The notes under the pieces were generated by a model. It made no database searches and was not told where the DNA came from. It worked only from the letters and a program-made list of their open reading frames with translations. From contig CAUYUJ010000083.1 in the NCBI GenBank assembly GCA_963575745.1, positions 1-64,000 on the forward strand: a stretch of DNA of 64,000 nt. The letters are read 5' to 3'. Source of the DNA: Prorocentrum cordatum (Eukaryota). Shown here piece by piece: positions 22,814-58,639 of this stretch. The first letter of the stretch is position 1. Each line of letters starts with the position of its first letter. The position numbers and the translations under genes are program-made.

Positions 22814-22913
22814 NNNNNNNNNNNNNNNNNNNNNNNNNNNNNNNNNNNNNNNNNNNNNNNNNNNNNNNNNNNNNNNNNNNNNNNNNNNNNNNNNNNNNNN
22901 NNNNNNNNNNNNN
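22814..22913. other. Assembly gap (100 N)
   Basis: Run of N. It hides the 5' end of the YR element. Confidence 1.
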
Positions 22914-41790: not shown

Positions 41791-41978
41791 CGCGAAGCCG
41801 CTGACGTGCGCGGCGTGCAAAGGCGCGTTCTCGGACACGAAACATTTGAAGCAGAAACAAGTGGAACATCATCGAGCGGCGAAAGGAGCTAAAGTGGTGT
41901 ACAGAAGCTGCGAGGAACTCGGGTTCACAGCGCGCAGTTGCCAGGCTTATCAGTGCAGCGGCGCGTGCAAGAGAGGAC
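41789..41978 (+). pseudogene. Cys-rich zinc-finger-like ORF, 5' half, interrupted by the Copia element (3' half 58320-58402)
   Basis: Removing the element and one TSD restores ...YQCSGACKRG|LPKSAFPDPHNLPRDAKKGTLKCKTCK*. Confidence 0.65.
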
Positions 41979-42263
41979 ACTTTAAACGGAGAAGGTTAAA
42001 GGCGAGGTATAAATCGAGCATGTACCGCTGCCGTGCCTGGCTCAAGCCGGGCCCGGCCAAATATATGACTGTGCCTCACCGAGGCGCACGACTGGTATCT
42101 GAGATCGGAAAATACCTTTTCCATTGAAGATGCCCCTTCTATCCTTTACTCCAGATCCCATGCTTCGTCTCGCTCTCTTGCTCATGCGATATGAGCCAAA
42201 GCCTGGGATATGGCAACGCTTGAAGCGTAACACATACCTAAGCTTACCAGCATGTTTTCGACT
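41979..42263 (+). repeat. 5' LTR (285 bp)
   Basis: Matches 58030-58314 except for 2 substitutions. Confidence 0.97.
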
Positions 42264-44106
42264 TGGTAGCGGAGCTGGCTACACTCTCGTGTGGCTGGCT
42301 CTCGCTCTGATTCCTGTAATCCACGGCACAACTTGGTGGACTACTACTACGGTGGAATACCATGTTGCGCCGGCTCTGCGAGGAGCGGAGCCAGTCCGCG
42401 ATCGAGCTAGCGGGGCAACCCGCGAACTCGAGACGCTCTCTCCTACTTCACTGCGCTACTTCACTCTCGACTTCCACCAGATGCCAATCGGCAACTCGAT
42501 CGAGAACGTGGTCACCCTGCGGGGCTACCCGCAGCGGGGCCACCTGCATCCCGTGCCAGTCAGGCGCCTCACGGCTACTACGCCAGAGCCTGACAAACCA
42601 CAGCCTAAACCAATCACCGAAGCCGAAATGCACATGCACTGGATTAAGATAACTATCTTCGGCATTCTGTGGGTAATAATGGGATGTGCTGTGGGATACA
42701 TGCGGCAGGGGATGGACGACACGCGTACTACCGGCCCTTCGTGGGACCCTGCCGGTACTACGCCTTTTCGCGAATACGTTCGCGAAGTACATGCATGGAT
42801 AAACGTAACGAGCGGCAATATGACGCCACCTCAACAAGCTGCAGCACTACAACGAGGCCTTCAAGGTCTTGCTCGTCGTATCGCCATGCAGGTCCCCTCC
42901 CAGATCATCAATTATGGTGTAACTGTCAATGGACAGCCAACGGATGCAGTTACTTATATACTGTACCTATTGAGCACCAAATTTGAAAATCTGGAAGATG
43001 AGCGCCAGCTCAACTCTGGCACTGCCCTTATCGACTTTCGCGTCGAAAGGGGCGAGCGAATCGACTCAGTGTTAGCTCGATTCGAGATGGCCCGTGACGA
43101 GGCTAACTCTGTTGGCTTTGTCATCCCCAACTTTCAGATCCTAACGCTGATCCTTTTCAGAGCGTTAGGCGTTGGCGCGTCACGAGCCCAACACCTGCTG
43201 GAGCCCTTTAATCATCAGATGCCCAGAACACAAGCAGACTATGACAGGCTGCTGACCAGGATGAGGAACTACGGACATGTTGCCGAGCGCTCTCCTGGCA
43301 ACATTGCGGGTATCTTCACAGGGCACCACTCACATGCAGGTGTCTACGCCACGACTGCGGGGTCACCCGCTGGTCCTGGCGAGCCAAGTCCCTGGGCTGA
43401 CCCAGCCGATATGCCCAACGAGGCCACTGCCTTCTTAGGGCAGACCGGCCAGGCATCGGCAGAGGCAGCTGAGGCGAACGCCTGGTCGAACTACTCGCCA
43501 GGCGCCGCCTACACTGCAAGCCCGCCCTCGGGCACAACCCTCTGGGGCCAAGCGGAGTCATCCGCTCAAGGGTCTCAGCCACCCTCACCGTTTGAATCTG
43601 GCACTGACACAGATACCTCATCTGACGATGAGCACAATGGCATAGTCTCTGCTGGTAATGACTATCCAGCGGATGACACTCACCTTTCTGAACAACAAAG
43701 AGCGGAAGCCGCTTTTATGGCTTATCGCAAATCAAAACGCCGTTGGAGGCGCTTTATGAAGAAACCAGTCAGAAAAGTGAGACGTGCAGTACGCCGACAT
43801 TTCAAACGATATGGAAAGGGTCGTGGCAAAGGGGGTCGCAGACGCCGTATGCATGGTAGGGGTATTACTGCTTTCCTCACGTCCTTAACTGATATAGTTT
43901 TTGAAGAAGTTCTTATCGGAGGCAAAGGTCGGGGTCACAGGCGGACCTCTGGTAAGGGAAAAGGGCGGAGGGGCAACCCTAGGGGCGCTTCTGGCAATAC
44001 TATGAAGTGTCATACATGCGGTAGCACAGAGCATTTGCGCGATCAATGCCCGAAATGGGAAAGGAAAGGGATCCGTACATTTGGCTCAGAACTCTTTTAT
44101 GGATGA
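42130..44106 (+). CDS. gag: Gag (hydrophobic N-terminal segments, capsid-like core, CCHC knuckle)
   Basis: PSWDP..F..Y..W core, basic GKG tracts and CHTCGSTEHLRDQC. Continues into the next frame via a +1 indel near 44053. True start uncertain. Confidence 0.85.
   Translation: MPLLSFTPDPMLRLALLLMRYEPKPGIWQRLKRNTYLSLPACFRLGSGAGYTLVWLALALIPVIHGTTWWTTTTVEYHVAPALRGAEPVRDRASGATRELETLSPTSLRYFTLDFHQMPIGNSIENVVTLRGYPQRGHLHPVPVRRLTATTPEPDKPQPKPITEAEMHMHWIKITIFGILWVIMGCAVGYMRQGMDDTRTTGPSWDPAGTTPFREYVREVHAWINVTSGNMTPPQQAAALQRGLQGLARRIAMQVPSQIINYGVTVNGQPTDAVTYILYLLSTKFENLEDERQLNSGTALIDFRVERGERIDSVLARFEMARDEANSVGFVIPNFQILTLILFRALGVGASRAQHLLEPFNHQMPRTQADYDRLLTRMRNYGHVAERSPGNIAGIFTGHHSHAGVYATTAGSPAGPGEPSPWADPADMPNEATAFLGQTGQASAEAAEANAWSNYSPGAAYTASPPSGTTLWGQAESSAQGSQPPSPFESGTDTDTSSDDEHNGIVSAGNDYPADDTHLSEQQRAEAAFMAYRKSKRRWRRFMKKPVRKVRRAVRRHFKRYGKGRGKGGRRRRMHGRGITAFLTSLTDIVFEEVLIGGKGRGHRRTSGKGKGRRGNPRGASGNTMKCHTCGSTEHLRDQCPKWERKGIRTFGSELFYG
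42264..42278 (+). promoter_or_regulatory. Primer-binding site TGGTAGCGGAGCTGG, initiator tRNA-Met type
   Basis: Directly abuts the 5' LTR. TGGTAGC is complementary to the ...GCUACCA 3' end typical of eukaryotic tRNA-iMet. Confidence 0.8.
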
Positions 44107-47086
44107 CATAGACTACATTGACTACGAGTTTTACGTCAATCCAGAAGCGGCTCCCGCCGCGGGCTCCTCCACGTATTACGTGATGGCCCGCTACGCTGAA
44201 GTGACCGTAGCCCTGGAAGACTACGCGGTGACCCTCTTCGACGAGTTCCACGGCTGGGACGAAGTCGACGAGGTCGCGTTCAATGCCTGGTTCGGTCTTC
44301 CAGCGGGGCCACCCGCCGACGACGAGATCTCCGATGCTGAGACCGTCCCGGCGACCGAGGAAGAGCTCGCCGCCGCGCTGGCACCGCAGGTGATTGGCAT
44401 GCCGTTGCTGCCAGATCTTCCGCGAGCTGGCTCGGAAGCGGGAGACGCTGATGACGAAATGCGGGGCCATCCCGCGTATTCTGACTCCGAAGAGGCCGAA
44501 GAGGACTATAAGGACATGCTCCAAGAGCAGGTCGCAGAAGCAATCCGGCTCCTGAGTGCGCCAGCACATCAGCAGATAACCATGAACGACCTGCTGTCGC
44601 GCCCAGGGGCCGCAAGGCTGCGTCCATACCTGGATTCGGACATGTCGGCACCTCAGATGCTGACAGCACTCCAGGCTCTAGCGGGGTCACCCGCCGAAGA
44701 GACGCCAGCCGCAGCAGCGGGGCCACCCGCTTGGTCTATGGATGTATTCATGCAGGGCTGCGACCAGATGGACCTCAACGACCTCGCGATGGAGCAGCTC
44801 AACGACATCGGGTACTTCCGAAGCCCGTATCAGCACGTATTCATGGTCCAGGACAGCTCAGAAGACTCGGAGGACATGCGCCATGCCAAGAGGGACAGAC
44901 GACCATCGCCTCCCCGAGACCCAGAGCATGACGATCAAAGGCCCATGGGACGTGGCAGTGCGTCAGCGGGGCCAGCCCGCAGAAGGAGCCGTTCAGCTCC
45001 ACGACGCCCTACACATGATGCATCGGGCTACCCGTACAGTACGGAGCACTCCGTAGGTGTATCCGCTCAGTACGTGCCGGAGTGGTACATCAATTGGTAC
45101 CCCGGCTACTCGATGGACGTGATCCGCCACTGGTATTCTAAGGAGTACTGCACCAAAAGGGACGAATCTGGCATGATAATACGTACCAAGGGTGGCAAGA
45201 CTAAAACGCCAGAGGCTTGGGACAAAAGGGCTAAGAAACAGGAGATAATCAACGATCGCAAGACATACAGGAAACAAGTATGTCAATGCGAGCCCTTCAA
45301 AGGTCACATGCGCAGCTGTCCAATGGACCGCCCCCCCAGGAGTCCTCATCACGGTGAGACCCCGTGGAATTGGTCTCATGGAGATGACGCTGGCAACGTC
45401 CATGATCCTAATAAGGAGGTCCCTGGAGGAGGAAAGCGCATCACTGAAGCCGATCGCGTCCCTATGACCGAGGAGGTTGCCAACACTGTCAGGGAAAATT
45501 GGGTACAGCTTCCCAATGACCATCGCCTCAAGGAATGGAACCGCCGATTCCATAAAGAGGCGGGGTCACCCGCAGAATCCAGCAAAGAGGCGGGGTCACC
45601 CGCAGAATCCAGCAAAGAAGCGGGGTCACCCGCAGACGCGGCGCCAGCCGCTGGGTCCGCGGACGAAGATTGGACAGCTGTTGCATCTGCTGCCGGATCC
45701 GCCGCCGGCACTGACCAAACCGAACTGAATGAAGAATGGGCGGCGGAAGACGGCTCAGAGAATCCATTCCCTGATGGGTGCGCCTGCTGGTACTACAGCT
45801 CCTCGGCGCAGAAGTGGTTTTGCACAAGGGTCATTCACCGCCACGAAAATGGCAAGTACAAGCTGGCCATAAAAGGCACTGCCGACATCGACCATATGAG
45901 GCAGATCATCCATGATCATGGCCAGCCAGAAGGCCCTCCTAAGGACCCTCCTGGTCCACAACCAGGTAAGGGCAGCAGACCACCTCCAAGACCTGAAGCC
46001 GACTACTCTTCTTCACCGACTCCTGCGAAGAGACACCCGTCCAAGAGCCCCGAAGACACACAGGGGCGTGCGAAGGCCAGAGGGATCGCCAAGAAGGGCA
46101 ACCCTGAGCAGGGAGAGCCTACCGGCCCGTCCGTGACGGAGAGGAGGAAGGCTTTTGCTGGACCATCGACCCCGATGCCACCGGCTGCCCAAGGCGATGT
46201 CAAGGGCGAAGTTCGCAATCAGCCTAAGGCAGCCTTCCGAGGTGACTGGACTCCAACTCTGCATCAGCCGCGCCTTGCACCACGACCAGGTTCGGCACGG
46301 ATGAAAGCACAGCCGAAGCCCGAAGCTGGGATGAGGTCGGTGCGGGCAGAAGCAGCCGCCAAAGCTAAGGAGGACAAGGGCTCTGCGGGGCCACCCGCTA
46401 AAGCGGCGCCAGCTGCAGCAGCGGGGACACCCGCAGAAAGCACTCTTTCAAGAGAAGAACGCTTCAGAGCCCTCAAAGAATTTGGCGACCGACAGAAACT
46501 AGCCGACGATGCAGTGGCTGACCAAGGTCACCCGCACCCTGGCGCGGAGTCATCCGCTGGAGCTGCCTCGTCAGCCGCAGGTTCTGCAGGGCCACCCGTT
46601 AAAGCGCCGCCAGCTGCATTAGCGGGGCCACCCGCGCGCTGGCAGCCAGTGATGTCTGTTCTTAGGAACATCCCTCTGGGAGCCATTGAATATTGGCAAG
46701 GCATTGAAGGCAAAGGCCCGAAGCGCACCATAAACCCACGAGTCACTCGAGACGATACAGATCGATACGAGGTCATTAATTGCCCTGATCGTCGTAACTT
46801 CGAGTGCCGCAACGACTGGGAACGTGAACAACAAGCCGTGGGAAATATGTTGCGAGACAGGCCGCCATTGCGCGTCGCGCAGCACAGGGCAGAGCTCATG
46901 AAGGTCATGGAGAGGTTCGGCATGGATCCGACTCTGCCGCGCGATGGGCAAATGACCAAGGTGTCAATATGGTTCTCTACAGCCCTACGCCATAGTCCGT
47001 ATTGGAAGGATGGATTCAGCCGACACTTCGAAATATTAGCACTTTCGATCCATACGATGGCTGGGTTGTTGTTGACGATTTGCTGA
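44081..47086 (+). CDS. Polyprotein part 2: low-complexity linker, Tudor/SH3-like domain (45767-45907), N-terminus of the Tpt1/KptA domain
   Basis: 1001-aa open frame with FPDG..WYYSSSAQKW..RV...ENGKYKL and SIWFSTALRH. Confidence 0.75.
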   Translation: MAQNSFMDDIDYIDYEFYVNPEAAPAAGSSTYYVMARYAEVTVALEDYAVTLFDEFHGWDEVDEVAFNAWFGLPAGPPADDEISDAETVPATEEELAAALAPQVIGMPLLPDLPRAGSEAGDADDEMRGHPAYSDSEEAEEDYKDMLQEQVAEAIRLLSAPAHQQITMNDLLSRPGAARLRPYLDSDMSAPQMLTALQALAGSPAEETPAAAAGPPAWSMDVFMQGCDQMDLNDLAMEQLNDIGYFRSPYQHVFMVQDSSEDSEDMRHAKRDRRPSPPRDPEHDDQRPMGRGSASAGPARRRSRSAPRRPTHDASGYPYSTEHSVGVSAQYVPEWYINWYPGYSMDVIRHWYSKEYCTKRDESGMIIRTKGGKTKTPEAWDKRAKKQEIINDRKTYRKQVCQCEPFKGHMRSCPMDRPPRSPHHGETPWNWSHGDDAGNVHDPNKEVPGGGKRITEADRVPMTEEVANTVRENWVQLPNDHRLKEWNRRFHKEAGSPAESSKEAGSPAESSKEAGSPADAAPAAGSADEDWTAVASAAGSAAGTDQTELNEEWAAEDGSENPFPDGCACWYYSSSAQKWFCTRVIHRHENGKYKLAIKGTADIDHMRQIIHDHGQPEGPPKDPPGPQPGKGSRPPPRPEADYSSSPTPAKRHPSKSPEDTQGRAKARGIAKKGNPEQGEPTGPSVTERRKAFAGPSTPMPPAAQGDVKGEVRNQPKAAFRGDWTPTLHQPRLAPRPGSARMKAQPKPEAGMRSVRAEAAAKAKEDKGSAGPPAKAAPAAAAGTPAESTLSREERFRALKEFGDRQKLADDAVADQGHPHPGAESSAGAASSAAGSAGPPVKAPPAALAGPPARWQPVMSVLRNIPLGAIEYWQGIEGKGPKRTINPRVTRDDTDRYEVINCPDRRNFECRNDWEREQQAVGNMLRDRPPLRVAQHRAELMKVMERFGMDPTLPRDGQMTKVSIWFSTALRHSPYWKDGFSRHFEILALSIHTMAGLLLTIC

Positions 47087-50000
47087 CAAACTGGACTGAA
47101 AATGATCAGTGGAAAGGCTATCGTGAAATGCACGAGGTGCTGATCAAGGGCAGGCCCCACACGTCATACGTGTATTGGGTGCTGCTAAACTGCTGTGAGA
47201 TGATTGACCATCACGGCATGCAGAAGGGCAGGCTCCAGATGAAGTGCGTTGATGACAGCATGCTGCTGCCTCCCAGGTTTCGACCAACGGCACGCAGGCC
47301 ACAGTACTTCATCAGAGCCACGAACGGCCACAGCAGTCCAGGCATCCACTGTCCCGAGTCGCTTTATAAGCCGATCACAACATGGATGAAAGAACCAGAC
47401 GACCCAGTATATTTCATCCACGGGACACAGTGGGAGTATGTCAAGGACATCCTTGCTAATGGCCTTTCATGCCTCGCACAGGACAACCCTAAAAGGAAGG
47501 GGGGGCGCCAATTTGTACACGGCTGCCCCTACCTCCCGGGCGACCCGAGGATTCAATCGGGCATCCGTCCTGACTCGGAGGTGCTCATATTCTGCAGCAT
47601 CAACAAGATGCTGTCCAGTGGCTTCTCCCTATGGAGGTCAGCAAATGACATCGTCATGACACGGGGCCACGACGGCCGTATACCGCCCGATCATATCCTC
47701 CAGATTGTGAGCATTGCGAAATATCGGGTCGGTGAAGCCTGGAGCAATCCGCTGGCGTATGACAAATCGCGGAGGCGGGGCCAACCCGCAGACAGGATTC
47801 GCACCGATGACTACCTGCCACTTAAACTATGTGACAAAACTCTGGGTGTAATGGAAGATCACGCCATGTACCTAAAGGGATGGTCTAAGACGGACGGTCG
47901 CCCATTCAACTTGATCATGACCGAGCAAGATGTTGCTCCACGACCGTACGACACACAGACGGTCCTCATGATAAATGCCCAGGAAGACGAGGTCATGCCT
48001 GAAGCGGGGCCACCCGCAGGTGCGGGGACACCCGCGGTAGACACCTCGGACGGTTCATGGCAACAAGTGGTCACACCAGTAGCAACGGTAGCATCTCCTT
48101 GGAGGCCGGATCAGCAGGCATGGGTCCAGGCCCTCAACAGCTACTTGACACCAGCCGACGTTTCTGGACTGACCGATCAGCTATATCGTGCTGACCCGTG
48201 GGCAGTGCATACAGGTATCCAAGACGCACAGCAGAGGAACCTGCGCACTCCTGCGGGGCCACCAGGCGTCCTAGGACCACAGCCACAACGCCCTCCGCAG
48301 CAGACGGGAGGTGCGAGGTTTGTCCCTATGGGCGGCTCAGATGGTGGCTCGCCGTTTCGGACTCCGCCGTCTGAAACGAGCGAGAACAGCTTGTGGCAAA
48401 GACTCCAGGCGATTCGCGGGAATCCGGCACTCGCAGCAGCACTCCAAGCAACCACTCCCTTTGGCACTCCGAGGGGTAGTGAAGGAGGAGTGGCTGCGGG
48501 GTCACCCGCCGAGCGAACGCCTGCGGAGCCACCCGCTCAAGCGGGGCCACCCGCTGACGGACAGCAAGGTTCAGACTACGAACGTCGGGCAGCCAACTTA
48601 AGAGCACAGGCTACTTTTCTGCAGCAACAAGCTGATAGAGTGCCCAGCCTGTTGCGGAACCGCAACATAGATGTTACGAATCATGGCGACTTTCGGCCTC
48701 TCTGGAGCTGGACTTCTGAAGATGCTCCAAATGCTGATCCCACGAATCCATATCGACAGGTGTTTATTCCAGGAATAGCATCACACCCGATATATGGATG
48801 GGACAATCACGGTCCAGCAGAGGCACAGGCCATGGACGCGCCGATGTACCCGGAGTACTACGCGCAGATGAATAACACTCCTATGATTGCGGGGCCACCT
48901 GCGAACGAATACACTCGGAATCTAGCCAATGAGATGTTTCGTTTGCAGTTTACACGAGCGGTCGATGCGCAGTCTATGCCGCACTACGCCTACATGCCCA
49001 CGCCGACGGACCCCGAGACCGTAGTTCAGCCAGCTGGTCTCGCGGTGCCAGCCGCTATGGGCAACGTGCCAGACTACATCCGCGACGTGCACAACACGCA
49101 GCAAGCGATACTGGCATCCAGGCAGCAGGCTCGGGACAACACCAGGCTGCGCCAACGACGCGCGATCCAGAGAAGGATTGAGCGTGAGACCCAAGCGGGG
49201 GCACCCGCAGAAGCGGGGCCACCCGCTGAACGGCCAGACAGACGGCCGCCACCGACGCCATATCGGGAGGGCGAAACCACTTTCGAGCGCCAAGCTCGGA
49301 CTCGCCCTGACGTGCCTGCTCCAGTCATTTCAGACTACAACTTCACACAGTGTCCAATCTGCATGGACAACTACGAGATGGGCACTACAGTGTGGAGACT
49401 GGCGTGTGGGCACTTCTTTCACGATATATGCTGGGATCGTGTTGCACAGCAGCACGTCCGCAATCAGCGGCCAGGTGCGCCGAATGAGGCCCCCTGCGCT
49501 GTATGTCGTGGGCCGGGCATAGTTATAGCGCACTTCCCGTGTGCTGGACAGCGCGACGCTGAATCAGAACAAGCGCGCCAGCAGGAAAGGTACGTGGCAG
49601 ATGCCCGGGAAATGCGTCGGCTACGTGAAGCAGTGGAGGCACTGGAGGCTCGAGCCGCACAATCGGCGGAGCCATCCGCACGTGCCCCAGCTGCACAGGC
49701 ATGCCCCTGGCCAGCGCCAGAGCAAGGCATTCAGATGCCAATCCTGCCTACGCTTCGAGCGCAGGAGCCCCCAGCTGCGGGGCCACCCGCTGAAGCGGCT
49801 CCCGCCGCACAAGCGGGGCCACCCGCAAATGGACCTCCAAATCCAGGTTTCCTGAGGGCAATGGAGGCCAACATCAGGCGGAGTGGCAGGAGCGGAGGCG
49901 GGACTCGAAGGCCAACTGGATCAACCAGGACCTCGCGAGTGGCAAGCCCGGTCAGCGCCAGGAGCCGGGCAAGCGCTGAGAGCGCAGAGGCAGCCCAGTT

Positions 50001-51312
50001 CCATACTACATTCATGATCGATACAGAGGGGCTGACCTACGCACGTGACGACACGGACACGCTGCCACCAGGAGGTGAATGGATGTCTACGCTATCTGCG
50101 AATTATTGGGTCCTTGAGCAGGAACCAATTACCGTGGAGGAGCGCCGCCAGTATGAGCAGATGTGGTGCACCGAGCTGACCATGAGTCAATGGGTTCTTG
50201 AACAGCGCCTGTTGAAGGGTACACTCGGATCGCAAATCACGTACCACACCAATGACCATGGGACAATCGCTCTGGCAGCGCGCAATGGGACATTCTTTCC
50301 CGACGAAGATGGTATGCCCTGCACCTCGTTCATGCTAGACATTGGTTCCAATGTGAACATCATTGGATCCAATACGGCGCGAACCTTCCAGGAGATTATG
50401 GCCAGGTGCAATTACCGACCTGCCATATGCACCCTGAGCAAGACCCTCTACATCAATGGTGTTGGTGAGGGCGCTGCGATATGTCGGAAGATGGGCAACT
50501 TCAAGATCGGGGTACAATATGCCAATGAGGCGAGCCCCCGTATTGAGGAGTATGCCTCCAACATTGCAGAAGGCTCGGGTGCTAATCTCCCGGCCATCTG
50601 GGGCCTAGGAGCCATGGAAGCACGTGATACGATCATCGTGCTGAAGCCAGGCTACCAGAAGGTTATCTTCCCCAGCGGTGACTACACCCTGAAGCTGGGA
50701 AGAGGCGCCAAGGTCCTGAAGGCGAAGAAAACTCCCTCGGGACATCTCGCGATTCCCTGCGGTTTGTATGACGGGGCTAAAAGCCAGACGGTCACGAACA
50801 CCTTCACAATCCGCAGTAGTCGAGATGGCTATACCGAGACGGAGAACGAAGAGGACCCCGTCAGTGCGGGGACACCCGCCGAAGCAACAGCGGGGCCACC
50901 CGCGACGGGACAGTCCACGACCGTCACGACCGATACGTACATTGTCGAGCCGTACATCGACAAGCAGCTCCTGGAAGACACGACCCGTTTGATCGTGGAC
51001 AGGACGCTGAACAGCTGGTGGGAGGGCCAACAGTGTCCCGAAGGGACCTGGCCACATATGAAGGATGCTCTGAAGTCTAAGATATTCTGGGCAGTCCAGG
51101 AGGCGGTGAATAAATGGACACCTGAGGACCAAGCGGGGCCACCCGCGTCACCGCCACCACCACCAAGCTACACGGGCGGAGGTTCGTCGGACTCTGCGGG
51201 GCCAACCCGCGTGGAGATCGCGAGCGTAGCCACACCAGCGACTCCTGCGGAGCCATCCGCTAACAGCATGCCTCCGAGTCAGACGGCAACGTGGTCACAC
51301 GACCGCCGCTGA
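47002..51312 (+). CDS. Polyprotein part 3: Tpt1/KptA-like 2'-phosphotransferase, RING-H2 finger, aspartic protease
   Basis: DGWV, KGRL, IRATNGHS, HGT, GLS, SGIR and SANDIVMT. CPIC..CGHFFHDIC..CAVC (49351-49506). MLDIGS..AIWGL (50330-50610). Confidence 0.85.
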   Translation: MEGWIQPTLRNISTFDPYDGWVVVDDLLTNWTENDQWKGYREMHEVLIKGRPHTSYVYWVLLNCCEMIDHHGMQKGRLQMKCVDDSMLLPPRFRPTARRPQYFIRATNGHSSPGIHCPESLYKPITTWMKEPDDPVYFIHGTQWEYVKDILANGLSCLAQDNPKRKGGRQFVHGCPYLPGDPRIQSGIRPDSEVLIFCSINKMLSSGFSLWRSANDIVMTRGHDGRIPPDHILQIVSIAKYRVGEAWSNPLAYDKSRRRGQPADRIRTDDYLPLKLCDKTLGVMEDHAMYLKGWSKTDGRPFNLIMTEQDVAPRPYDTQTVLMINAQEDEVMPEAGPPAGAGTPAVDTSDGSWQQVVTPVATVASPWRPDQQAWVQALNSYLTPADVSGLTDQLYRADPWAVHTGIQDAQQRNLRTPAGPPGVLGPQPQRPPQQTGGARFVPMGGSDGGSPFRTPPSETSENSLWQRLQAIRGNPALAAALQATTPFGTPRGSEGGVAAGSPAERTPAEPPAQAGPPADGQQGSDYERRAANLRAQATFLQQQADRVPSLLRNRNIDVTNHGDFRPLWSWTSEDAPNADPTNPYRQVFIPGIASHPIYGWDNHGPAEAQAMDAPMYPEYYAQMNNTPMIAGPPANEYTRNLANEMFRLQFTRAVDAQSMPHYAYMPTPTDPETVVQPAGLAVPAAMGNVPDYIRDVHNTQQAILASRQQARDNTRLRQRRAIQRRIERETQAGAPAEAGPPAERPDRRPPPTPYREGETTFERQARTRPDVPAPVISDYNFTQCPICMDNYEMGTTVWRLACGHFFHDICWDRVAQQHVRNQRPGAPNEAPCAVCRGPGIVIAHFPCAGQRDAESEQARQQERYVADAREMRRLREAVEALEARAAQSAEPSARAPAAQACPWPAPEQGIQMPILPTLRAQEPPAAGPPAEAAPAAQAGPPANGPPNPGFLRAMEANIRRSGRSGGGTRRPTGSTRTSRVASPVSARSRASAESAEAAQFHTTFMIDTEGLTYARDDTDTLPPGGEWMSTLSANYWVLEQEPITVEERRQYEQMWCTELTMSQWVLEQRLLKGTLGSQITYHTNDHGTIALAARNGTFFPDEDGMPCTSFMLDIGSNVNIIGSNTARTFQEIMARCNYRPAICTLSKTLYINGVGEGAAICRKMGNFKIGVQYANEASPRIEEYASNIAEGSGANLPAIWGLGAMEARDTIIVLKPGYQKVIFPSGDYTLKLGRGAKVLKAKKTPSGHLAIPCGLYDGAKSQTVTNTFTIRSSRDGYTETENEEDPVSAGTPAEATAGPPATGQSTTVTTDTYIVEPYIDKQLLEDTTRLIVDRTLNSWWEGQQCPEGTWPHMKDALKSKIFWAVQEAVNKWTPEDQAGPPASPPPPPSYTGGGSSDSAGPTRVEIASVATPATPAEPSANSMPPSQTATWSHDRR

Positions 51313-52293
51313 CGGGGGCAGGCGGGCGCGCCGGCGGCGCTCGCTTGCGAAGAGAAGCCGAATGCCGGCCTCCTCGCTACATACGTTGGCCGCGCTGAGG
51401 CCCGAGAGGAAAAATATCATTCAAAATGTCTTGTCATCGAAGATATTCGCACAGCTTGCGCTGAACTCCGAATCCGTGGATATATATGCGACCGGATTAC
51501 CCATAATGAGGTAATGACTTCAACTGGAACACAGTATTTGGGAAATTTGTTGGCAGGAGACTACAATATGTTGTGGGTGGCCACACCCTCTGATTGGTAC
51601 GTTCGTACTCCAGGAAAGAGGGCGGGACCACACTATCAACGTATACAAAATCTCCTGATCAAAGCGCGTGCTCTGAGAATGCAGATTGTTATCCTGGGGC
51701 CACCCGGGTATTTCTGGAAACAGGGTCCGATCAAAGATGTTATCGAAGATTTGAAGCTAAGCATTATACGAATGAGACTCTGTCATTTCGGTATCAAGTT
51801 TGACCGCTCCAGTAAATATCCCAGTGGTTCTTATATACAAGTTGCTACATCTTGTCCTCATATACCGATAAACTTATGGAGATGTACTTGTGGCTCACAC
51901 AAAGAGCATGATTTGGATTGGTATGGCCAAGATCAGCAACGTGCCGAGTTCCGGCATAAAACCTTGGCTATCATCACAGCACGCTTCCTTGATCAACTCA
52001 ATAAAGCCAACGTGATTAGGAATGAGCGGAGTGCGGTGCACCTCAGTGTGTGTACGCGCGTTGACAAAAAGGAAAGACACTACGTTCAATGTCCACAAAA
52101 GGGCCCTCAATGGGACCATGTTGTTCGTAGAGTCACGACCGACCTGGACACGTATAAGATCGTTCAAGATATCAAAATCCAGGATCAGCCGACTGGGTAC
52201 AACTATGTAGCTCCATTACCTGATGGGGTTACAAACATCAGTACTCGGTTTATACTGGGAGCCTCCGGCTCCAGTTCTTCACGGCGATGGTGA
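51313..52293 (+). CDS. In-frame continuation after a single TGA: degenerate methyltransferase-like domain
   Basis: Same frame as 47002-51312 with no further stop. LWVATP / VILGPPGYFW / RLCHFGI / RCTC..H parallel the motifs of the domain at 52769. Confidence 0.6.
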   Translation, partial: RGQAGAPAALACEEKPNAGLLATYVGRAEAREEKYHSKCLVIEDIRTACAELRIRGYICDRITHNEVMTSTGTQYLGNLLAGDYNMLWVATPSDWYVRTPGKRAGPHYQRIQNLLIKARALRMQIVILGPPGYFWKQGPIKDVIEDLKLSIIRMRLCHFGIKFDRSSKYPSGSYIQVATSCPHIPINLWRCTCGSHKEHDLDWYGQDQQRAEFRHKTLAIITARFLDQLNKANVIRNERSAVHLSVCTRVDKKERHYVQCPQKGPQWDHVVRRVTTDLDTYKIVQDIKIQDQPTGYNYVAPLPDGVTNISTRFILGASGSSSSRRW

Positions 52294-55200
52294 GTCGCGA
52301 AGGCCACGCCCAAAGCGTGTGACGATCGTCGACGACGATCGGTCTCCTCCCCCTTCGATTGAGCGCTGCCAAACGCGACCCACCAACTTTCCTGAAATTC
52401 CGCCATTTCCTGACTTAACAGCGGACCCTTCCGCAGCGGATCCCTCCGCAGCGGATCTCTCCGCGGAAACTGCGCTGCCCACTGATGCCAGGATAAAACA
52501 GAAAGAAAAGCAGAAAGCTGACAAAGAAGCCGGCATCAAACCGAAGAAAATCCCGAAGAAAGTGGAAGACGGTAACGACGACTGTGGAGAGGACCTCAAA
52601 GGGCTTGACTGCTCCACATATTTCAACGACGTTCCTCTTGACGACTCGGACTCGGACAGCGAATCAGAGGACATCTTCATGATGTTACCGGCGGGGCAAC
52701 CCGCTGACTCACATGTTGATGTCTTCTCGATGGTCCAGTCACTATGCTACGGCAGAAACAATCAAGTGGACATGCTTGAATTATGTGGGGGCAAGGGTGG
52801 TATATCCATATTAGCCTTCAAGAGAGGACTCTCGTCGGGCGGGAACCTTGATAAGATATCAATGGTTGACCTTGGAAACGCAGAAGTACAAAGGGCGGTC
52901 CTTCACTACCTCAAGACTTGCTTTGTCAAGATCACGATTCTGCAGCCAAGCTGCAGAACTACTGGACTTCCTTCATACTTCAATGCGCAGGTCAATCATG
53001 ACACGTGGCTTAAACACCACAAGGAGGACCTGCCCCATATCACGTTCTGTGGAACAGTCGCTCTATTGCAAGACGACCTAAGACGTTTCTTTCTCAGGGA
53101 ACAACCAATGGGCACGTGGGTGGATGAGATCCAGCCATGGAAGGAACTGGCACGACGCAAGGTCACTTGCCAAACGATTATTGATCAGTGCACGACTGGT
53201 CTCAAAGATTCGTTTGGACAATACATCCGCAAGCCAACACAGATGATGGCAAACAAAGAAGAGTTGTTGGCACCCTTCAGAGGCAAGCGTTGTCCAGGTA
53301 ATCATGTGCACGCCAATGCTTGCAACAAAGAACTAGCAAGGGCGGCACAGTATACCTACAGAATGCAGTCATTGATCGTCGATGCGGTGCAAACCGCCAA
53401 AGATCTGTTTGCTTACGGTCGCGATCCATTCGCGAATCGCGAACGCAGTTATGCGTTCGTAACAAACAGTGCTGGCTACGACTTGGACGACCCAACAATC
53501 CGGAGACACCCAAACGGAGAAATCTGGCGACCACCACCTGGCGGTCTTGGGTGCCCTGGCTGTGTGGACAACAACTACAAGCAATCACCAAAGCACAGCA
53601 GGGATCCGAAGATGTGTCGGTGGTATGATGTTGAACCATACTACTGGGACTGTCCAAGCTGTAAGAAGGAATATCAGAAGAGTAATCCTCACCACACCAA
53701 GATATCTGGCCAATGCAGATTCGCCGAAAAATGGAAGCTGCCAGATAACTTTGGGCAGCCGCGCCCGGCGGGGCAAGCCGCTCCTGCGGCGCCAGCCGCG
53801 GAAGCGGCTCCAGCCGCAGAAGCGGCGCCAGCCGCAAAAGCGGCGCCGGCCGCGAGAGCGCGCATACGCGCGCCTAGGCCGCCACGGCCCGGTGAGGGCG
53901 ATCCAACCGCAGGCGCCAGCAGCCATGACATCACCAGAGCCGAAGGGGCTAATAGTAGCAACACTGGCGCTGGCAGCTCTGACGATCACCGTAGACTGCC
54001 GCAAGTGGCAGCAAGGCGCGGACGCATGGAAGGAGGTGATCCTCCACCGCCGCCGCAGCCTCCTGTAGAGCCGAGGCCAAGGCCAAGGCTTCCTGATTGG
54101 ACTCGTTTCGATGTTCAGCTCAGCCTTCAAAACCTGCGCAGCTTTGACCCAGCTGTAGTGCAGCGAGAACTCCGCAAGCTTCACTTGAGATGGTTTCATG
54201 CCAAGGAACCAAAGATGCGGATGATTCTAGCTAAGGTCGGTTTGGGCGAAACCCGTTTGAGTCTGATTAAGGGCATTTGCGACTCGTGTAGAGAATGTCG
54301 CGCCTGGGACAAACCAGGCAACACGGTGATGCCATCTGTGTCACTGCCAGGACATTTCAACGAGGAAGTCGAATGTGATCTTTTCTTTTACAAACAGGAA
54401 CATATTGTTTTTCACATCATCGACCGTTGTATTCGTTGGGCAGCTGGTACAGAGATCCCCGATAAGACTATGCACACTGTTCTTGATGCCTATCACACAA
54501 CTTGGATGCAGCATGGCCCTGCCAAAGTCTTATACTCCGACGGGGAAGGAGCACTGAATAACGATACAGCAAAGGCCATCCTTAAATCCAAGGGAACGGA
54601 GCTTCGTATCCGAGCGCGTGGCCAACACGCCACGACTATCGAAGCTAGGAACGGCATCCTGCGACACCTCATACACGTGATGGGAGAAGAATTGAATAGA
54701 TTGAATATTCCTCTGAATTTCACTCGTCTTTTACATGAAGCCATGTTTGCCAGCAATGCATTTACCTTCTACAACGGAGCTTCTCCGTATAATGCGTTAT
54801 ATGGCAGACCACCAGCTATGCTTCCCGATTTCCTTGTCTTGGATCATGATCAATCCGCTGAATCATCAGATCACTCAAGGGAGGAGACAATCAGGAGGGT
54901 TAGTCTGGAGGCAATCACGCAGGCCACTGCGGTTGCCAAGACAAACAGGGCTCTTCGTACGAAGACCGCTGCTACGGGTGAATTTCACTACAGAGAGGGA
55001 GATCTCGTGGACTATCATCGCCCGACCACCACGAAAGATGACTGGGGTGGATGGAGTGGTCCATACCCGGTCATCCGCAATGAACCTGACCGAAGCCAGG
55101 TTATCGTGAAGGTCGGTAGTCGCGAAGTGCGAGTACAATATCCTGACACAAGACACACGCTGTACATCGAAGCACTTATGGTCCGCGAGATAGGATCGGA

Positions 55201-57925
55201 CAATACGGCCCTTCGGACAGTATTGGCCTTTATTGCCGGTCTGCCAGCGGGGAAACCCGCCATGACTTTCGGATATCTACCAGCGAAACAGGGCCGGCTG
55301 CAGATGACTGCTGCGAGCCGGCTTTCGCCTAAGGTGCACTTGGCTCTTCAGTACCTCATACGCAACTACTTTCGTATTGAAAACGTTGTTGCTGTACGAC
55401 TTGCCAAGAGCCTGACGAAGTTGCCTGCTGCACCCTATGCAGACAGCTGTACACTAGTGCACTATGATAATGATGTGACCCCTGGCTTTCATTACTATGA
55501 AGCTGATGGCACTGCCTTGAACATCTACGACATCACAGGATCTACACACTCACGCATCATCCAGTGTCTTAAATCCAAGAAGCCGCCTGCTGGATTTGAC
55601 CGAGACCTCACTAAGTTTGAGGAACTCGCTGATGGTCCACCACCAAGCGAGTCACCTCCAGCAGCTGCTCCTGAGCAGCCTCCTGCGGAGAACGATGGTC
55701 GGCTCCCGACCATCATAGAGGAAACAGAAGAAGATCTGGATGCCTTTGTCTTGAAGTCGTGGTATGCTGAACTGATGGATGACAGAACACTCCTTGAAGC
55801 TGACACAGAAGAAGTCATGCATACAGTTCCCACATACATGACAGACACACAGTGTGTGTTAGTCTCTACGACCTGTGAAGATGTGCAAGGCCACTTGCCG
55901 GAGCGGGGTCACCCGCCAGGATACGACATGGACACTTCTTACTACGTTCCTTTATGCTCCACGGATCCGGACAGCAAATATGATCTGGACTCCGATGAGC
56001 ACGGGAAGTACATCGAGCTCTGCTTCACAGCAGACATGTCCAAAGTCGTCCTGTCCGAGCAGCAACGCCGATTGTTGAATGACAGCAGCGTCACAACTAT
56101 GCGAGTATACGTTAGTGCTGCTTCCAAACGTGCCGTGGTCGTCAAGGAAGACGATCTACTCACGAAGGCCGACATTCAAGCGAATCCGGTCAAAGTTTCC
56201 AAAGCCCTGTACACAGAATTGAAGACTTGGCTTGACAACAAATGCTTCCAGATGACTGACTTGAGCAAAGCGTCTAACATCATGACTTCACGCTACGTAT
56301 ACAAATGGAAGTTTGTCAAGAACGAAAAGGGCGAAATGGAAAGGACGATCAGGTTACGCTTGGTACTCCGTGGCTTCATGGACCTTGAAGCCTTTGATGT
56401 CGAAACCTTCTCTGGCACGGCAAGGAGGTCAAGCCAGAGACTGCTCGCAAGTTCTGCTGCATGCAACAAAGCTTGGATCATCGCTTCCCTGGACATCAAC
56501 ATGGCTTTCTTGAAGGGACTGACCTATAGCGAGCTCGCCGCGGCAACGGGCGAGAAAGAGCGTGTGGTGTGCTTCGCACTACCTCCTGGGTCAGCAGCTG
56601 TCCTTCGCACACTGCCAGGCTTTGAGTCATATGACGAATCAAAGCATTGTCTTCGGTGTCTGAAGCCGGGGGCGGGCACGAAGGATGCTCCCAGGGCATT
56701 CTCGTTGAAGCTCAGGTCCATCACTAGGAGCTTTGGGCTACAGCCTACTTCATACGACAAAGAGTTCGAGATGAGCCCAAACCTCTTGACAGCCAAACAC
56801 GTTGATGACATCAATATGACTGGGAAGGAAGATGCTATTGACAAGTATGTCAAATGTGTTGAAGATACGTTTGGAAAGTGCAAACTGAACAAGCACACAT
56901 ACACAAACTGTGCCGTTCGGTACAACAAGACCGATGATGGGAGCGTCACTCTTGATCAGGACGAATACATCAAACAGCTTCGTCCTATCACACATCCAGA
57001 ACTCACAGGAGCTGATCCTGAGAGCAAAGCGACAAAGACGATTTCTGATATGTTCGTCAGTCTTCGTGGCGCTCTAGCCTATGCGTTGATCACGCAGGTA
57101 TGGCTGATGGTCTATGTTGTCTCACTACAACGTATCCAGGAACCGACAAACATCCAGGTACGACGACTAAACGCGGTTACCAGGAAACTACAGGCAGGTC
57201 CGAAGAAGATCGTGTATCAAGCTATGACCCCAACAGGAGAAGTCGACCTGCATAGCGATTCTGGCTATCGTCGTCTCAACGGAGATGAAGACGACGAAGT
57301 CAAAGGCTATGGTATCCGCGGGGCTAACCTGCTGAGGCGTGGCCACACGCAAGCGGGGAAACCCGTCGTGCACCTGGTGGACGCATACTGCAAGTCTCAT
57401 CGACTGCAGGTGCGTTCGAGCTACTCTGCGGAAACACTGGCAGCAGCCCACAACTTGGAAGACTGCTACCCGACCATTGTAACGCTCCACGAGCTACACT
57501 CGGGACCATTGACCCCCACACAGTTAAAGAACATATTGGAAATGGGTGGTCTATGTATCAAAGTCACTCTGACTATTGATGCCGAGTCTGTCTTCAAGTC
57601 TTTGTCTAGCAAAGATCTGAAGAAGCCCACAGAATGTACTCTGCTTGGGCACATTAGCTGGATCCGCCAGATGATGGAGCGCGGAATCGTTGAAAGCGTT
57701 CAATGGTGTGACACGCGGGATATGACTGCCGATGGTCATACCAAAGGTAGTATTGACCGCGCGTTGCTCCTACAAGTAATGGCCGGCCAGCAATCCTTCA
57801 AGCACGAGCTGAAGAAACATACTCCGTATAGGGCGGGCAGGTCGTCTCAGGACGGCCCTGCCTCCCGAGCTAGCGGGGAAACCCGCATGCAGGTGCGCTC
57901 TAGTAGCGAGGAAACTCGCCGGTAG
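52223..57925 (+). CDS. pol: Pol: C5-methyltransferase-like domain, two CCHC-type fingers, integrase, RT, RNase H
   Basis: ELCGGKGG, QPSC and FLREQP. HLRWFH..CREC, ECDLFF, SDGEG and IEARNG. YVYKWK..RLVLRGF, DINMAFL, GTKDAPRAF and HVDD. HSDSG, SAETLA, IDAES and ADGHTK. Confidence 0.93.
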   Translation: MGLQTSVLGLYWEPPAPVLHGDGESRRPRPKRVTIVDDDRSPPPSIERCQTRPTNFPEIPPFPDLTADPSAADPSAADLSAETALPTDARIKQKEKQKADKEAGIKPKKIPKKVEDGNDDCGEDLKGLDCSTYFNDVPLDDSDSDSESEDIFMMLPAGQPADSHVDVFSMVQSLCYGRNNQVDMLELCGGKGGISILAFKRGLSSGGNLDKISMVDLGNAEVQRAVLHYLKTCFVKITILQPSCRTTGLPSYFNAQVNHDTWLKHHKEDLPHITFCGTVALLQDDLRRFFLREQPMGTWVDEIQPWKELARRKVTCQTIIDQCTTGLKDSFGQYIRKPTQMMANKEELLAPFRGKRCPGNHVHANACNKELARAAQYTYRMQSLIVDAVQTAKDLFAYGRDPFANRERSYAFVTNSAGYDLDDPTIRRHPNGEIWRPPPGGLGCPGCVDNNYKQSPKHSRDPKMCRWYDVEPYYWDCPSCKKEYQKSNPHHTKISGQCRFAEKWKLPDNFGQPRPAGQAAPAAPAAEAAPAAEAAPAAKAAPAARARIRAPRPPRPGEGDPTAGASSHDITRAEGANSSNTGAGSSDDHRRLPQVAARRGRMEGGDPPPPPQPPVEPRPRPRLPDWTRFDVQLSLQNLRSFDPAVVQRELRKLHLRWFHAKEPKMRMILAKVGLGETRLSLIKGICDSCRECRAWDKPGNTVMPSVSLPGHFNEEVECDLFFYKQEHIVFHIIDRCIRWAAGTEIPDKTMHTVLDAYHTTWMQHGPAKVLYSDGEGALNNDTAKAILKSKGTELRIRARGQHATTIEARNGILRHLIHVMGEELNRLNIPLNFTRLLHEAMFASNAFTFYNGASPYNALYGRPPAMLPDFLVLDHDQSAESSDHSREETIRRVSLEAITQATAVAKTNRALRTKTAATGEFHYREGDLVDYHRPTTTKDDWGGWSGPYPVIRNEPDRSQVIVKVGSREVRVQYPDTRHTLYIEALMVREIGSDNTALRTVLAFIAGLPAGKPAMTFGYLPAKQGRLQMTAASRLSPKVHLALQYLIRNYFRIENVVAVRLAKSLTKLPAAPYADSCTLVHYDNDVTPGFHYYEADGTALNIYDITGSTHSRIIQCLKSKKPPAGFDRDLTKFEELADGPPPSESPPAAAPEQPPAENDGRLPTIIEETEEDLDAFVLKSWYAELMDDRTLLEADTEEVMHTVPTYMTDTQCVLVSTTCEDVQGHLPERGHPPGYDMDTSYYVPLCSTDPDSKYDLDSDEHGKYIELCFTADMSKVVLSEQQRRLLNDSSVTTMRVYVSAASKRAVVVKEDDLLTKADIQANPVKVSKALYTELKTWLDNKCFQMTDLSKASNIMTSRYVYKWKFVKNEKGEMERTIRLRLVLRGFMDLEAFDVETFSGTARRSSQRLLASSAACNKAWIIASLDINMAFLKGLTYSELAAATGEKERVVCFALPPGSAAVLRTLPGFESYDESKHCLRCLKPGAGTKDAPRAFSLKLRSITRSFGLQPTSYDKEFEMSPNLLTAKHVDDINMTGKEDAIDKYVKCVEDTFGKCKLNKHTYTNCAVRYNKTDDGSVTLDQDEYIKQLRPITHPELTGADPESKATKTISDMFVSLRGALAYALITQVWLMVYVVSLQRIQEPTNIQVRRLNAVTRKLQAGPKKIVYQAMTPTGEVDLHSDSGYRRLNGDEDDEVKGYGIRGANLLRRGHTQAGKPVVHLVDAYCKSHRLQVRSSYSAETLAAAHNLEDCYPTIVTLHELHSGPLTPTQLKNILEMGGLCIKVTLTIDAESVFKSLSSKDLKKPTECTLLGHISWIRQMMERGIVESVQWCDTRDMTADGHTKGSIDRALLLQVMAGQQSFKHELKKHTPYRAGRSSQDGPASRASGETRMQVRSSSEETRR

Positions 57926-58029
57926 CGAGGCTACTCGCGCGCCCTTGCCTTGTAGGCGGCCGCTGCTGCTTAGCACTGTTTTTCCGCGTAATGTAGAAGT
58001 GCGGTGCCTGCTCGTCTCCTCCCCCTCCG

Positions 58030-58314
58030 ACTTTAAACGGAGAAGGTTAAAGGCGAGGTATAAATCGAGCATGTACCGCTGCCGTGCCTGGCTCAAGCCG
58101 GGCCCGGCCAAATATATGACTGTGCCTCACCGAGGCGCACGACTGGTATTTGAGATCGGAAAATACCTTTTCCATTGAAGATGCCCCTTCTATCCTTTAC
58201 TCCAGATCCCATGCTTCGTCTCGCTCTCTTGCTCATGCGATATGAGCCAAAGCCTGGGATATGGCAACGCTTGAAGCGTAACACATACCTAAGCTTACCA
58301 GCGTGTTTTCGACT
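58030..58314 (+). repeat. 3' LTR (285 bp)
   Basis: Matches the 5' LTR and is followed by TSD AGGAC. Confidence 0.97.
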
Positions 58315-58639
58315 AGGACTACCAAAGTCGGCGTTCCCCGACCCGCACAATCTCCCGCGCGACGCAAAGAAGGGCACCCTAAAGTGCAAGACGTGCAAAT
58401 GATGCCCAATCGGTTGCGCGTACTAGGCAGAAAAGGGAGGACGGGAAGAGGAGGATGGGGGGTGAGGCGGAAAATGGGGGGGAGAAGCATCGGTGAGGAT
58501 GAGCTGAAGCGGGGCAGGAAGAGGAGGAGGGGAACGAGGAGGAAGTGTAGGAGGAGGAGGAGGAGGAAGAGGAGGAGGAGGGGGACACTGAGATGAGGCT
58601 CCGGGTTATGGGGTTGGGCGCGACTCGAAAGACCGGTGT

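Follow-up and report, generated by a model that had tools for sequence, protein, structure and literature searches.

A hairpin repeated along the sense strand of a 16-kb Copia-like element in Prorocentrum cordatum is very probably selected as RNA

The 64,000-nt window analysed here (positions 1 to 64,000 of contig CAUYUJ010000083.1, forward strand, in the Prorocentrum cordatum assembly GCA_963575745.1) contains a Copia-like retrotransposon with long terminal repeats (LTRs), which occupies 16,336 nt of the plus strand at 41979-58314. It has the LTR pair with target-site duplication, the primer-binding site and the RVT_2 reverse transcriptase following the integrase region that characterise Ty1/Copia elements (Table 1). 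The primer-binding site, TGGTAGCGGAGCTGG, may resemble the 3' end of initiator tRNA-Met, as in Ty1; no tRNA gene was detected in the 64-kb window. The integrase of the window copy gave no Pfam match, and relatives of its pol region carry PF07727 and PF00665. In the Gag-like open reading frame (ORF), translation revealed a long arginine-rich stretch preceding the CCHC zinc knuckle. The element houses all 27 exact copies of a 14-nt hairpin, with five base pairs in its GC-rich stem and a loop of four bases that reads G-N-N-A, which we consider very probably to be selected as a structure of the sense-strand RNA. Three related loci were available as DNA for comparison: L072, a copy of the same family in a contig of a bacterial metagenome-assembled genome (MAG); L001, an 8.8-kb metagenome contig from a distant family; and L002, a relative of L001.

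Table 1. Features of the Copia-like element and its hairpin sites (window coordinates; hairpins written as arm-loop-arm, with peptide and codon phase where translated).
Feature	Position	Strand	Remarks
Target-site duplication AGGAC, left copy	41974..41978	+	Same 5-mer at 58315-58319
5' LTR, 285 nt	41979..42263	+	2 mismatches to 3' LTR; without hairpin motif
Primer-binding site TGGTAGCGGAGCTGG	42264..42278	+	Directly 3' of 5' LTR; identical in L001 at 1014
Leader hairpin GCGGG-GCAA-CCCGC	42410..42423	+	Phase 1 of open frame
Leader doublet: GCGGG-GCTA-CCCGC (42519), GCGGG-GCCA-CCTGC (42534, G·U)	42519..42547	+	Phase 2
Hairpin, AGSPA	43357..43370	+	Phase 0; L001 hairpin 2 codons away in alignment
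Variant GCGGA-GTCA-TCCGC	43552..43565	+	
CCHC zinc knuckle, end of Gag-like ORF	44005..44055	+	Pfam PF00098, E 0.0014, below curated cut-off
Hairpin, AGPPA	44303..44316	+	Kept in L072; in L001 at 3013 as G·U form
Two hairpins: 44681 (AGSPA), 44717 (AGPPA)	44681..44730	+	Both identical in L072; L001 without hairpin
Three hairpins in 30-nt tandem repeat (45560, 45590, 45620; AGSPA) and GCGGC-GCCA-GCCGC (45638)	45560..45651	+	
Triplet: 46385 (AGPPA), 46403 (GCGGC-GCCA-GCTGC, G·U), 46421 (AGTPA)	46385..46434	+	18-nt spacing
Variant GCGGA-GTCA-TCCGC	46544..46557	+	
Hairpin, AGPPA	46622..46635	+	In L072 comparison
Tpt1/KptA RNA 2'-phosphotransferase domain	47188..47667	+	Pfam PF01885, E 2.6e-15; third ORF
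Doublet: 48004 (AGPPA), 48022 (AGTPA)	48004..48035	+	18-nt spacing
Hairpins: 48496 (AGSPA), 48541 (AGPPA)	48496..48554	+	
G·U variant GCGGG-GCCA-CCTGC (AGPPA)	48889..48902	+	
Doublet: 49195 (AGAPA), 49213 (AGPPA)	49195..49226	+	
RING finger	49348..49509	+	Pfam PF13923 and PF13639; third ORF
Variant GCGGA-GCCA-TCCGC	49666..49679	+	
Hairpins: 49777, 49813 (AGPPA)	49777..49826	+	GCGGC-TCCC-GCCGC between them at 49795
Hairpins: 50866 (AGTPA), 50890 (AGPPA)	50866..50903	+	
Hairpin, AGPPA	51133..51146	+	
Variant GCGGA-GCCA-TCCGC	51247..51260	+	
Hairpin, AGQPA	52691..52704	+	Loop GCAA
Overlapping GCGGC/GCCGC palindromes	53777..53853	+	Encode (AAPAAx) repeats; include GCGGC-GCCA-GCCGC at 53786 and 53822
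Hairpin, AGKPA	55247..55260	+	Loop GAAA; between integrase-like and reverse transcriptase regions
Doublet: GCAAG-GCCA-CTTGC, GCGGG-GTCA-CCCGC	55885..55916	+	Phase 2 (QGHLPERGHPP); 18-nt spacing
Copia-type reverse transcriptase RVT_2	56237..57016	+	Pfam PF07727, E 1.5e-10; residues 1343-1602 of last ORF
GCGTG-GCCA-CACGC (57337), GCGGG-GAAA-CCCGT (57353, G·U)	57337..57366	+	
3'-terminal cluster: GCGGG-GAAA-CCCGC (57873), GCGAG-GAAA-CTCGC (57906), GCGAG-GCTA-CTCGC (57925)	57873..57938	+	57873 in phase 1; 57925 past stop codon
3' LTR, 285 nt	58030..58314	+	LTR pair

The pattern GCGGGGNNACCCGC was searched on both strands of the whole window. It matched exactly 27 times, always on the plus strand and within 42410-57886, and gave no exact match in the remaining 47.6 kb. 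A first-pass annotation of this DNA, made by eye, had listed 27 perfect copies, all with the loop G-N-N-A on the sense strand and none noticed outside the element; every one of these copies was recovered at its position, the loop is as described in 27/27, and the absence elsewhere holds for the other 47.6 kb. In 100 dinucleotide shuffles of the window, the mean number of exact motifs was 0.02 and the maximum 1. When the search was relaxed to any 5-bp stem with a GNNA loop and at most one G·U pair, 53 hairpins (45 of them perfect) were found inside the element, distributed from 42373 to 57938, compared to 10 (5 perfect) in the rest of the window; the annotation had proposed a count inside and outside the element. 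The stem reads identically on both strands, and the strand bias is carried by the loop alone: among the 94 perfect hairpins of the element with 5-bp stems and 4-nt loops, GNNA is read on the plus strand in 45 and on the minus strand in 8. The loops of the 53 relaxed hairpins fall mainly into the class GNCA (40, comprising GCCA, GTCA, GACA and GGCA), with GNRA in 10. The base preceding the exact motif is A in 17 of the 27 copies and C in none. Three of the five sense-strand variants with a single mismatch are G·U forms, and nine hairpin pairs in the element lie exactly 18 nt apart. The stem variants with GCGGA, GCGGC and GCGAG arms and the G·U-compatible forms that had been reported were all present where they had been placed (Table 1), the copy at 57925 beginning on the last base of the stop codon.

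The annotation had dismissed protein selection on the ground that the motif occurs in all three codon phases. All three phases are indeed used, at 23 copies in phase 0 (encoding A-G-x-P-A), two in phase 1 and two in phase 2, and this lopsided distribution makes the argument weaker than it was stated. Moreover, GCN GGN ... CCN GCN is nearly self-complementary, so that encoding the peptide is enough to produce four of the five base pairs, and thus the argument from phase is insufficient. The silent positions are more informative. Among the AGxPA peptides in the ORFs, 23/26 are encoded by the identical codons GCG GGG NNA CCC, although the usage of GCG, GGG and CCC is only 0.27, 0.22 and 0.20; at the third base of the last alanine codon, which lies just outside the motif, all four letters occur. 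Codon-shuffled controls, which the annotation had also proposed, gave the same picture. In 300 synonymous shuffles that kept the protein and the codon usage, exact motifs numbered 0.17 on average (maximum 2) compared to 25 observed in coding sequence, and perfect 5-bp GNNA hairpins of any stem numbered 2.35 (maximum 6) compared to 42. This shows that selection acts on the nucleotides and not on the peptide, so the dismissal of protein selection was right on other grounds. The hairpin overrides codon choice and five amino acids per site. The phase-0 copies lie in low-complexity linkers between recognised domains, where the hairpin forces A-G-x-P-A and leaves only the two middle loop bases free, so that x varies.

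An alternative is that A-G-x-P-A is the selected unit, as a flexible linker or a cleavage site for the element's protease, and that the hairpin is its by-product. Such a peptide would fit the 23/27 copies in phase 0 between domains and its own near self-complementarity, and it recurs in distant relatives: 150 protein fragments related to ORF3 contain 29 AGxPA peptides where composition predicts 1.56, and the AGQPA and AGPPA types fall into separate clusters. Enrichment is weak in the relatives of pol (11 compared to 4.35), three of which (P0002, P0015 and P0017) also have the AGKPA peptide. However, a peptide motif leaves unexplained the four fixed silent positions of each copy, which are conserved between copies, as well as the copies in other phases, two sites that are kept in place and read in another frame, and the switch from CCC to CCT throughout the L001 family (15/15; see below). 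We regard it as highly improbable.

The hairpins changed less than their surroundings in both pairs of related loci that were compared, in line with the expectation of the annotation that a functional motif would be conserved in related elements. L072 encodes proteins with 95% and 84% identity to ORF1 and ORF2 and is 88.5% identical to the window in DNA over 3279 aligned bases. Across the nine hairpins shared by the two, 1/126 bases differs, compared to 377/3153 elsewhere (p 5e-6), and at third codon positions the values are 0/36 and 247/1057 (p 1.4e-4). L001 and L002 are 79.4% identical, with 5/97 hairpin bases changed compared to 284/1306 elsewhere (p 2e-5); three of the five changes either lie at the two central loop positions or replace G-C by G·U, and the other two fall in one doubtful seventh site. 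By these comparisons, conservation of the hairpin is stricter than that of the protein it overlaps. Among the 40 of 1231 variant places in public sequencing runs that were listed, none lies in a hairpin where about one was expected, so that these variants provide no test. The 3.4-kb contig with L072 belongs to a MAG labelled Myxococcales and is probably a binning contaminant.

The same data bear on the possibility that the hairpins arose neutrally, by slippage or duplication of an 18-36-nt unit together with template-switch 'correction' of near-palindromes. Tandem units do exist (a 30-nt repeat present three times at 45560-45633 and the nine 18-nt doublets), and in the runs, the stretch from one hairpin copy to another has gained or lost units in some members of the family. 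Yet the flanks of the dispersed copies are unrelated to one another, and correction would neither fix the loop G and A nor keep G·U stems across a whole family. The motif also diverges less than the flanks within 15 nt of it, in which 32/226 bases differ between the window and L072. A neutral origin is, in our estimation, no more credible than the peptide motif.

The distant family provided an independent view of the motif. The ORFs of L001 are 58%, 36% and 41% identical to ORF1-3 (33% for ORF3 by tblastn), and its sense strand contains 17 copies of GC.GG....CC.GC, with forms that include GCGGG-GCAA-CCTGC (8), GCAGG-GCAA-CCTGC (3), GCAGG-ACAA-CCTGC (1), GCGGG-GAAA-CCTGC (1) and GCGGG-TAAC/TCAC-CCTGC (5, one of them in phase 2). 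Synonymous shuffles of L001 gave 2.28 copies (maximum 7) compared to 16 observed. Each family has its own version: GCGGG-GYCA-CCCGC in the window and GCRGG-GCAA-CCTGC in L001. The AGxPA peptides of L001 use CCT in 15/15 cases where the window family has CCC, and the third stem pair, G-C in the window family, is G·U (11) or A-U (4) in 15 of the 17 L001 copies. Further stem classes in L001 (4288-5300) and L002 (114-1093), GCGGC...GCTGC and GCGTC...GATGC, also have G·U at this pair, and wobble at pair 3 looks family-wide in these sequences and not bound to one stem class.

Several individual sites could be followed from one family to the other. The copy at 57873, read as SGETR in the window, aligns with GCGGG-GAAA-CCTGC at L001 599, which is in phase 0 as AGKPA, with an 11-nt indel just upstream and diverged flanks. 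In the alignment, 49213 (AGPPA) corresponds to the hairpin at L001 7053, whose reading there is MRGNL in phase 2. The leader hairpin at 42410 aligns with GCGAG-GAAA-CTCGC at L001 1181, a compensatory change from G-C to A-U that involves both sides of pair 4, and the leader doublet at 42519/42534 aligns approximately with an L001 doublet of different stems (GCATG/CATGC and GCACG/CGTGC). At 57337, the stem GCGTG...CACGC is kept in both families and the loop changes from GCCA to GAAA, which is still GNNA. Two sites in the coding region, 45590 and 48022, align with GCAGG-ACAA-CCTGC at L001 4066 and GCAGG-GCAA-CCTGC at L001 6028. In ten matched site pairs, which were picked because both members are hairpins so that the count leans towards structure, all 80/80 cells are paired and nine are changed on both sides, a result reached by 0/500 shuffles. 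Pair 3 of the matched sites is G-C in 9, A-U in 4 and G·U in 3, and pair 4 is G-C in 11, U-A in 3, A-U in 1 and C-G in 1. The covariation that the annotation had seen among stem variants is thus borne out by compensatory and wobble changes both within and between the families. Collectively, these comparisons at the level of sequence show a sense-strand hairpin, family-specific in sequence, that appears to be under purifying selection from the leader to the 3' end. What stands of the original idea of a distributed RNA code is a strand-specific nucleic-acid code, best read as RNA from its silent sites, its covariation and its frame-independent sites.

The annotation had offered a DNA-level site for the element's own enzymes as an alternative. 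In a wider form of this view, the integrase, another enzyme or a host system would bind or modify the 14-mer, either in duplex form or as a hairpin that is extruded or single-stranded. The motif contains two CpGs, its arms are palindromic and the element has several regions of unknown function, all of which would suit such a site. However, the occurrence of G-C at pair 3 in one family and of G·U or A-U in the other is a route that is open to RNA pairing and closed to a duplex DNA palindrome. Most L001 copies have the form GCGGG...CCTGC, which is no duplex palindrome and would place a G·T mismatch in a DNA hairpin, and compensatory changes in the arms are unexpected for a site bound as duplex. 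Profile searches found no DNA methyltransferase or other DNA-modifying domain in the scanned regions. These results disfavour a site in DNA, which we consider very unlikely.

Since many sites share one sequence within a family and differ between families, the hairpin probably has a trans-acting reader that recognises both sequence and shape. Such a sequence-specific reader would probably co-evolve with the element. The most likely reader would be the element's own Gag, as a candidate only. We favour it because of its arginine-rich stretch and CCHC knuckle and because three copies of the hairpin lie where retroviral packaging signals sit. Retroviral packaging signals lie in the leader, just behind the 5' LTR, and the nucleocapsid protein binds G-rich tetraloops in psi hairpins, among them HIV-1 SL2 and SL3. 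In the element, three copies (42410-42547) are found at a distance of 147-284 nt from the end of the 5' LTR, after the primer-binding site and before the conserved Gag core, and three more lie at the 3' end; the G-containing tetraloops and the CCHC knuckle add to the likeness, but the frame is open at the psi-like location in both families. In contrast to psi, which is a single leader region, the element repeats its hairpin across 15 kb of coding sequence, as far as the 3' end. The boxB hairpins of phages lambda and P22 likewise have a GC-rich 5-bp stem and a GNRA-like loop and are bound by the arginine-rich N peptide. They resemble the element's hairpin in the shape of stem and loop, and N has a parallel in the arginine-rich stretch before the knuckle of the Gag-like ORF. 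In contrast, boxB has a 5-nt loop compared to the 4-nt loop of the element, and it occurs once or twice per operon and serves antitermination.

We propose that the arginine-rich stretch and the CCHC knuckle of Gag recognise the hairpin, and that the many copies let Gag select and then coat or condense its own 16-kb genomic RNA, as a multi-site extension of a leader packaging signal. The combined explanation, a selected hairpin read by Gag for packaging or condensation, seems to us to fall just short of an even chance. A role as a multi-site signal for self-recognition and condensation of the 16-kb RNA is plausible, and we hold it with somewhat less confidence than that. More tentatively still, the hairpin may act as a 'barcode' that co-evolves between families and lets Gag recognise and condense only its own RNA among those of competing families, and that is strong enough to dictate A-G-x-P-A repeatedly in the polyprotein.

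The hairpin could also be read by host factors and cause ribosome pausing at domain linkers, nuclear export, RNA stability or escape from silencing. The position of the in-frame copies in low-complexity linkers between domains would suit pausing, and the restriction of the motif to the sense strand agrees with any of these roles in RNA. Copies near the primer-binding site and past the stop codon fit poorly, however, and a 5-bp stem of about -9 kcal/mol is a weak obstacle to ribosomes. A host reader would also leave unexplained the different versions in two families of related hosts, and the other 47.6 kb of the window has no copy. We think this role unlikely.

Several findings weigh against a selected RNA hairpin that is read by Gag. 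The restriction of the motif to the element is demonstrated within the 64-kb window only. The concentration of 23/27 copies in one phase leaves room for a peptide role, and most sites turn over between the families: of 15 window sites mappable onto L001, only 5 have a hairpin there. The RNA library X20 contained 11 family contigs (13/30 bins), which is no proof of transcription, and the choice of reader protein is a guess. Predicted folding points both ways. In favour of the hairpin is its stability in isolation, with a free energy of -9.3 kcal/mol for the window form and -7.1 and -7.8 kcal/mol for the L001 forms. With 75 nt of context on each side, 13/27 copies form in the minimum-energy fold, and the mean pair probability in context is 0.51 compared to 0.31 for control hairpins outside the element (11/40 formed). 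Most of the copies that fail to form lie close together, and the prediction pairs them with one another instead. A search of 41900-58400 against Rfam gave no family match at E up to 1. Finally, most loops are GNCA and not GNRA. The L001 family, with mainly GCAA and GAAA loops, mostly fits the GNRA tetraloops, as do 10/53 loops in the window. Because 40/53 window loops are GNCA, which does not fit G-N-R-A, the classical tetraloop-receptor reading is not favoured for the window family.

The predicted pairing of neighbours, together with the nine pairs at 18-nt spacing, keeps alive a model in which the copies interact with each other. Being self-complementary, any two of them could pair through their arms, forming a 5-bp helix on either side of a G·A-flanked internal loop, and in this manner zip two genomic RNAs (dimer linkage) or fold one 16-kb RNA without a protein reader. 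The neighbours 48004/48022, 49195/49213, 49777/49813 and 46385/46421 are predicted to pair mutually, and each family has one stem that differs from that of the other, as pairing between copies requires. In contrast, the stems GCAAG, GCGTG, GCGAG and GCATG are kept locally with compensatory changes and would not pair with the main class; a duplex offers no obvious use for the conserved loop G and A, and pairing out of register among about 30 identical sites would be hard to control. Pairing between copies, with no protein involved, appears improbable to us for both of these uses.

Dispersed cis-acting RNA stem-loops are known as a kind; what is unusual here is the exact repetition, the family-specific sequence and the imprint on the protein. 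In single-stranded RNA viruses and hepatitis B virus (HBV), short dispersed stem-loops are reported to share a loop motif, which is RGAG in the HBV pregenomic RNA, and are thought to bind the capsid protein cooperatively (PMC6281560, PMC4751978, PMC5431903, PMC7612645). These signals resemble the element's 53 hairpins in being many short stem-loops that are spread genome-wide, including coding regions, and that share a loop motif. The viral signals are degenerate with stems that vary by site, whereas about 30 sites in the element share an exact 12-base sequence. The element's motif also imposes a recurrent pentapeptide. In the literature searched, which consisted of listings and abstracts with subscription journals outside its coverage, no dispersed packaging signal in an LTR retrotransposon was found and no description of such a motif in a retrotransposon surfaced. 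Rickettsia palindromic elements are mobile insertions of about 100-150 bp in the bacterial chromosome that are translated in frame. They share with the element's motif a palindromic nucleotide repeat translated within proteins, but the unit of the element is 14 nt, is found in one retroelement family and has no insertion signature: several window sites align with unrelated L001 sequence of similar length, unlike the presence or absence of an insertion.

How LTR retrotransposons choose their own RNA is poorly known beyond a few model elements, and the handling of a 16-kb RNA is open. If the proposed role is correct, the element would hold the first multi-site packaging code described among LTR retrotransposons, and it would clearly illustrate how a signal in RNA can shape a protein sequence. 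The element offers a silently mutable 14-nt unit, about 50 natural copies and a sister family with another version, so that swaps of specificity between Gag and hairpin are directly testable. It also presents unusually clean overlapping codes, with four silent positions and one pentapeptide fixed per site, and bears on the annotation and evolutionary modelling of low-complexity linkers.

Outside the element family, viral contigs gave 0 matches to a double-hairpin pattern and 0 relatives by ORF3 alignment. Genome contigs gave 110 stretches, and by tblastn over 109 loci only L072 was related to the element. The ten others inspected (L065, L010, L019, L032, L013, L017, L005, L034, L066 and L074) were mostly tandem repeat arrays, located in prokaryotic contigs, with the 14-mer by chance; in L065, L010, L019, L032, L013, L017 and L074, it lies in arrays of 18-43-nt units with repeats of the PANPAGTPA and DSTDAGKPAE types. 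Public sequencing runs of marine, estuarine and freshwater origin contain the family itself in abundance, and its read depth, in the thousands in two public runs, indicates a high-copy family. Among named proteins, the nearest matches are to fragments within gene models of Prorocentrum cordatum, with 94-99% identity over short parts, and more distant relatives include a Symbiodinium 'RE1' and a Symbiodinium-type 'Skav' gene model. These matches by themselves make a dinoflagellate host very probable. Contigs from the runs join hairpin copies in ~3.6 kb deletions and a 36-nt duplication (45639-49216, 49777-49812, 46397-46599, 50879-49768), and in a contig of run X3 the 36-nt unit at 49777 is repeated. 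It seems that the repeated 14-mers supply the microhomology through which copies of the family rearrange.

The reading frame of the window copy is broken near 44055, 47030 and 52250, and an in-frame stop codon lies at 51310-51312. Run contigs (X1, X3 and X9) differ by one base at the three frame-break places, and some run contigs skip 51273-51308. Given these one-base differences, a single, very long open frame may exist in some members of the family. A DNA methyltransferase-like region in the last ORF (residues ~150-520) was considered and rejected, being unsupported by Pfam and having as its best hit in a PDB sequence search an unrelated protein at E 0.049. The Tpt1/KptA 2'-phosphotransferase and the RING finger sit inside the retrotransposon polyprotein, and both are retained in P0094, a relative with 33% identity. 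An open frame extends without interruption across part of the 5' LTR, the primer-binding site and the leader (42103-42620 in the window, 820-1420 in L001), with leader peptides that are alike in both families (FRLGSGAG..., HGT..WWTT and RRLTAT). Translation of the 'leader' is one possible reading; the other is that conservation of its nucleotides only resembles a frame.

At the other end, just upstream of the 3' LTR, where one would look for a polypurine tract, the sense strand is rich in pyrimidines (58003-58029; CTCGTCTCCTCCCCCTCCG), and L001 has this tract conserved at ~710-740. The idea that the G-rich arm of the hairpin serves as an internal plus-strand (polypurine) primer was dropped, as selection on the motif is for a hairpin and the motif is unlike the sequence beside the 3' LTR. 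The window has an assembly gap of 100 N at 22814-22913. The flanks of the element (40000-41800 and 58600-60400) consist of arrays of a CCCAAGACGGC-like repeat with a period of ~10.5 or 21 nt, with the complementary form nearer the element. Segments 40000-40299 and 60089-60388 are 92% alike, and from its sequence context the insertion is placed within a larger repeated structure.

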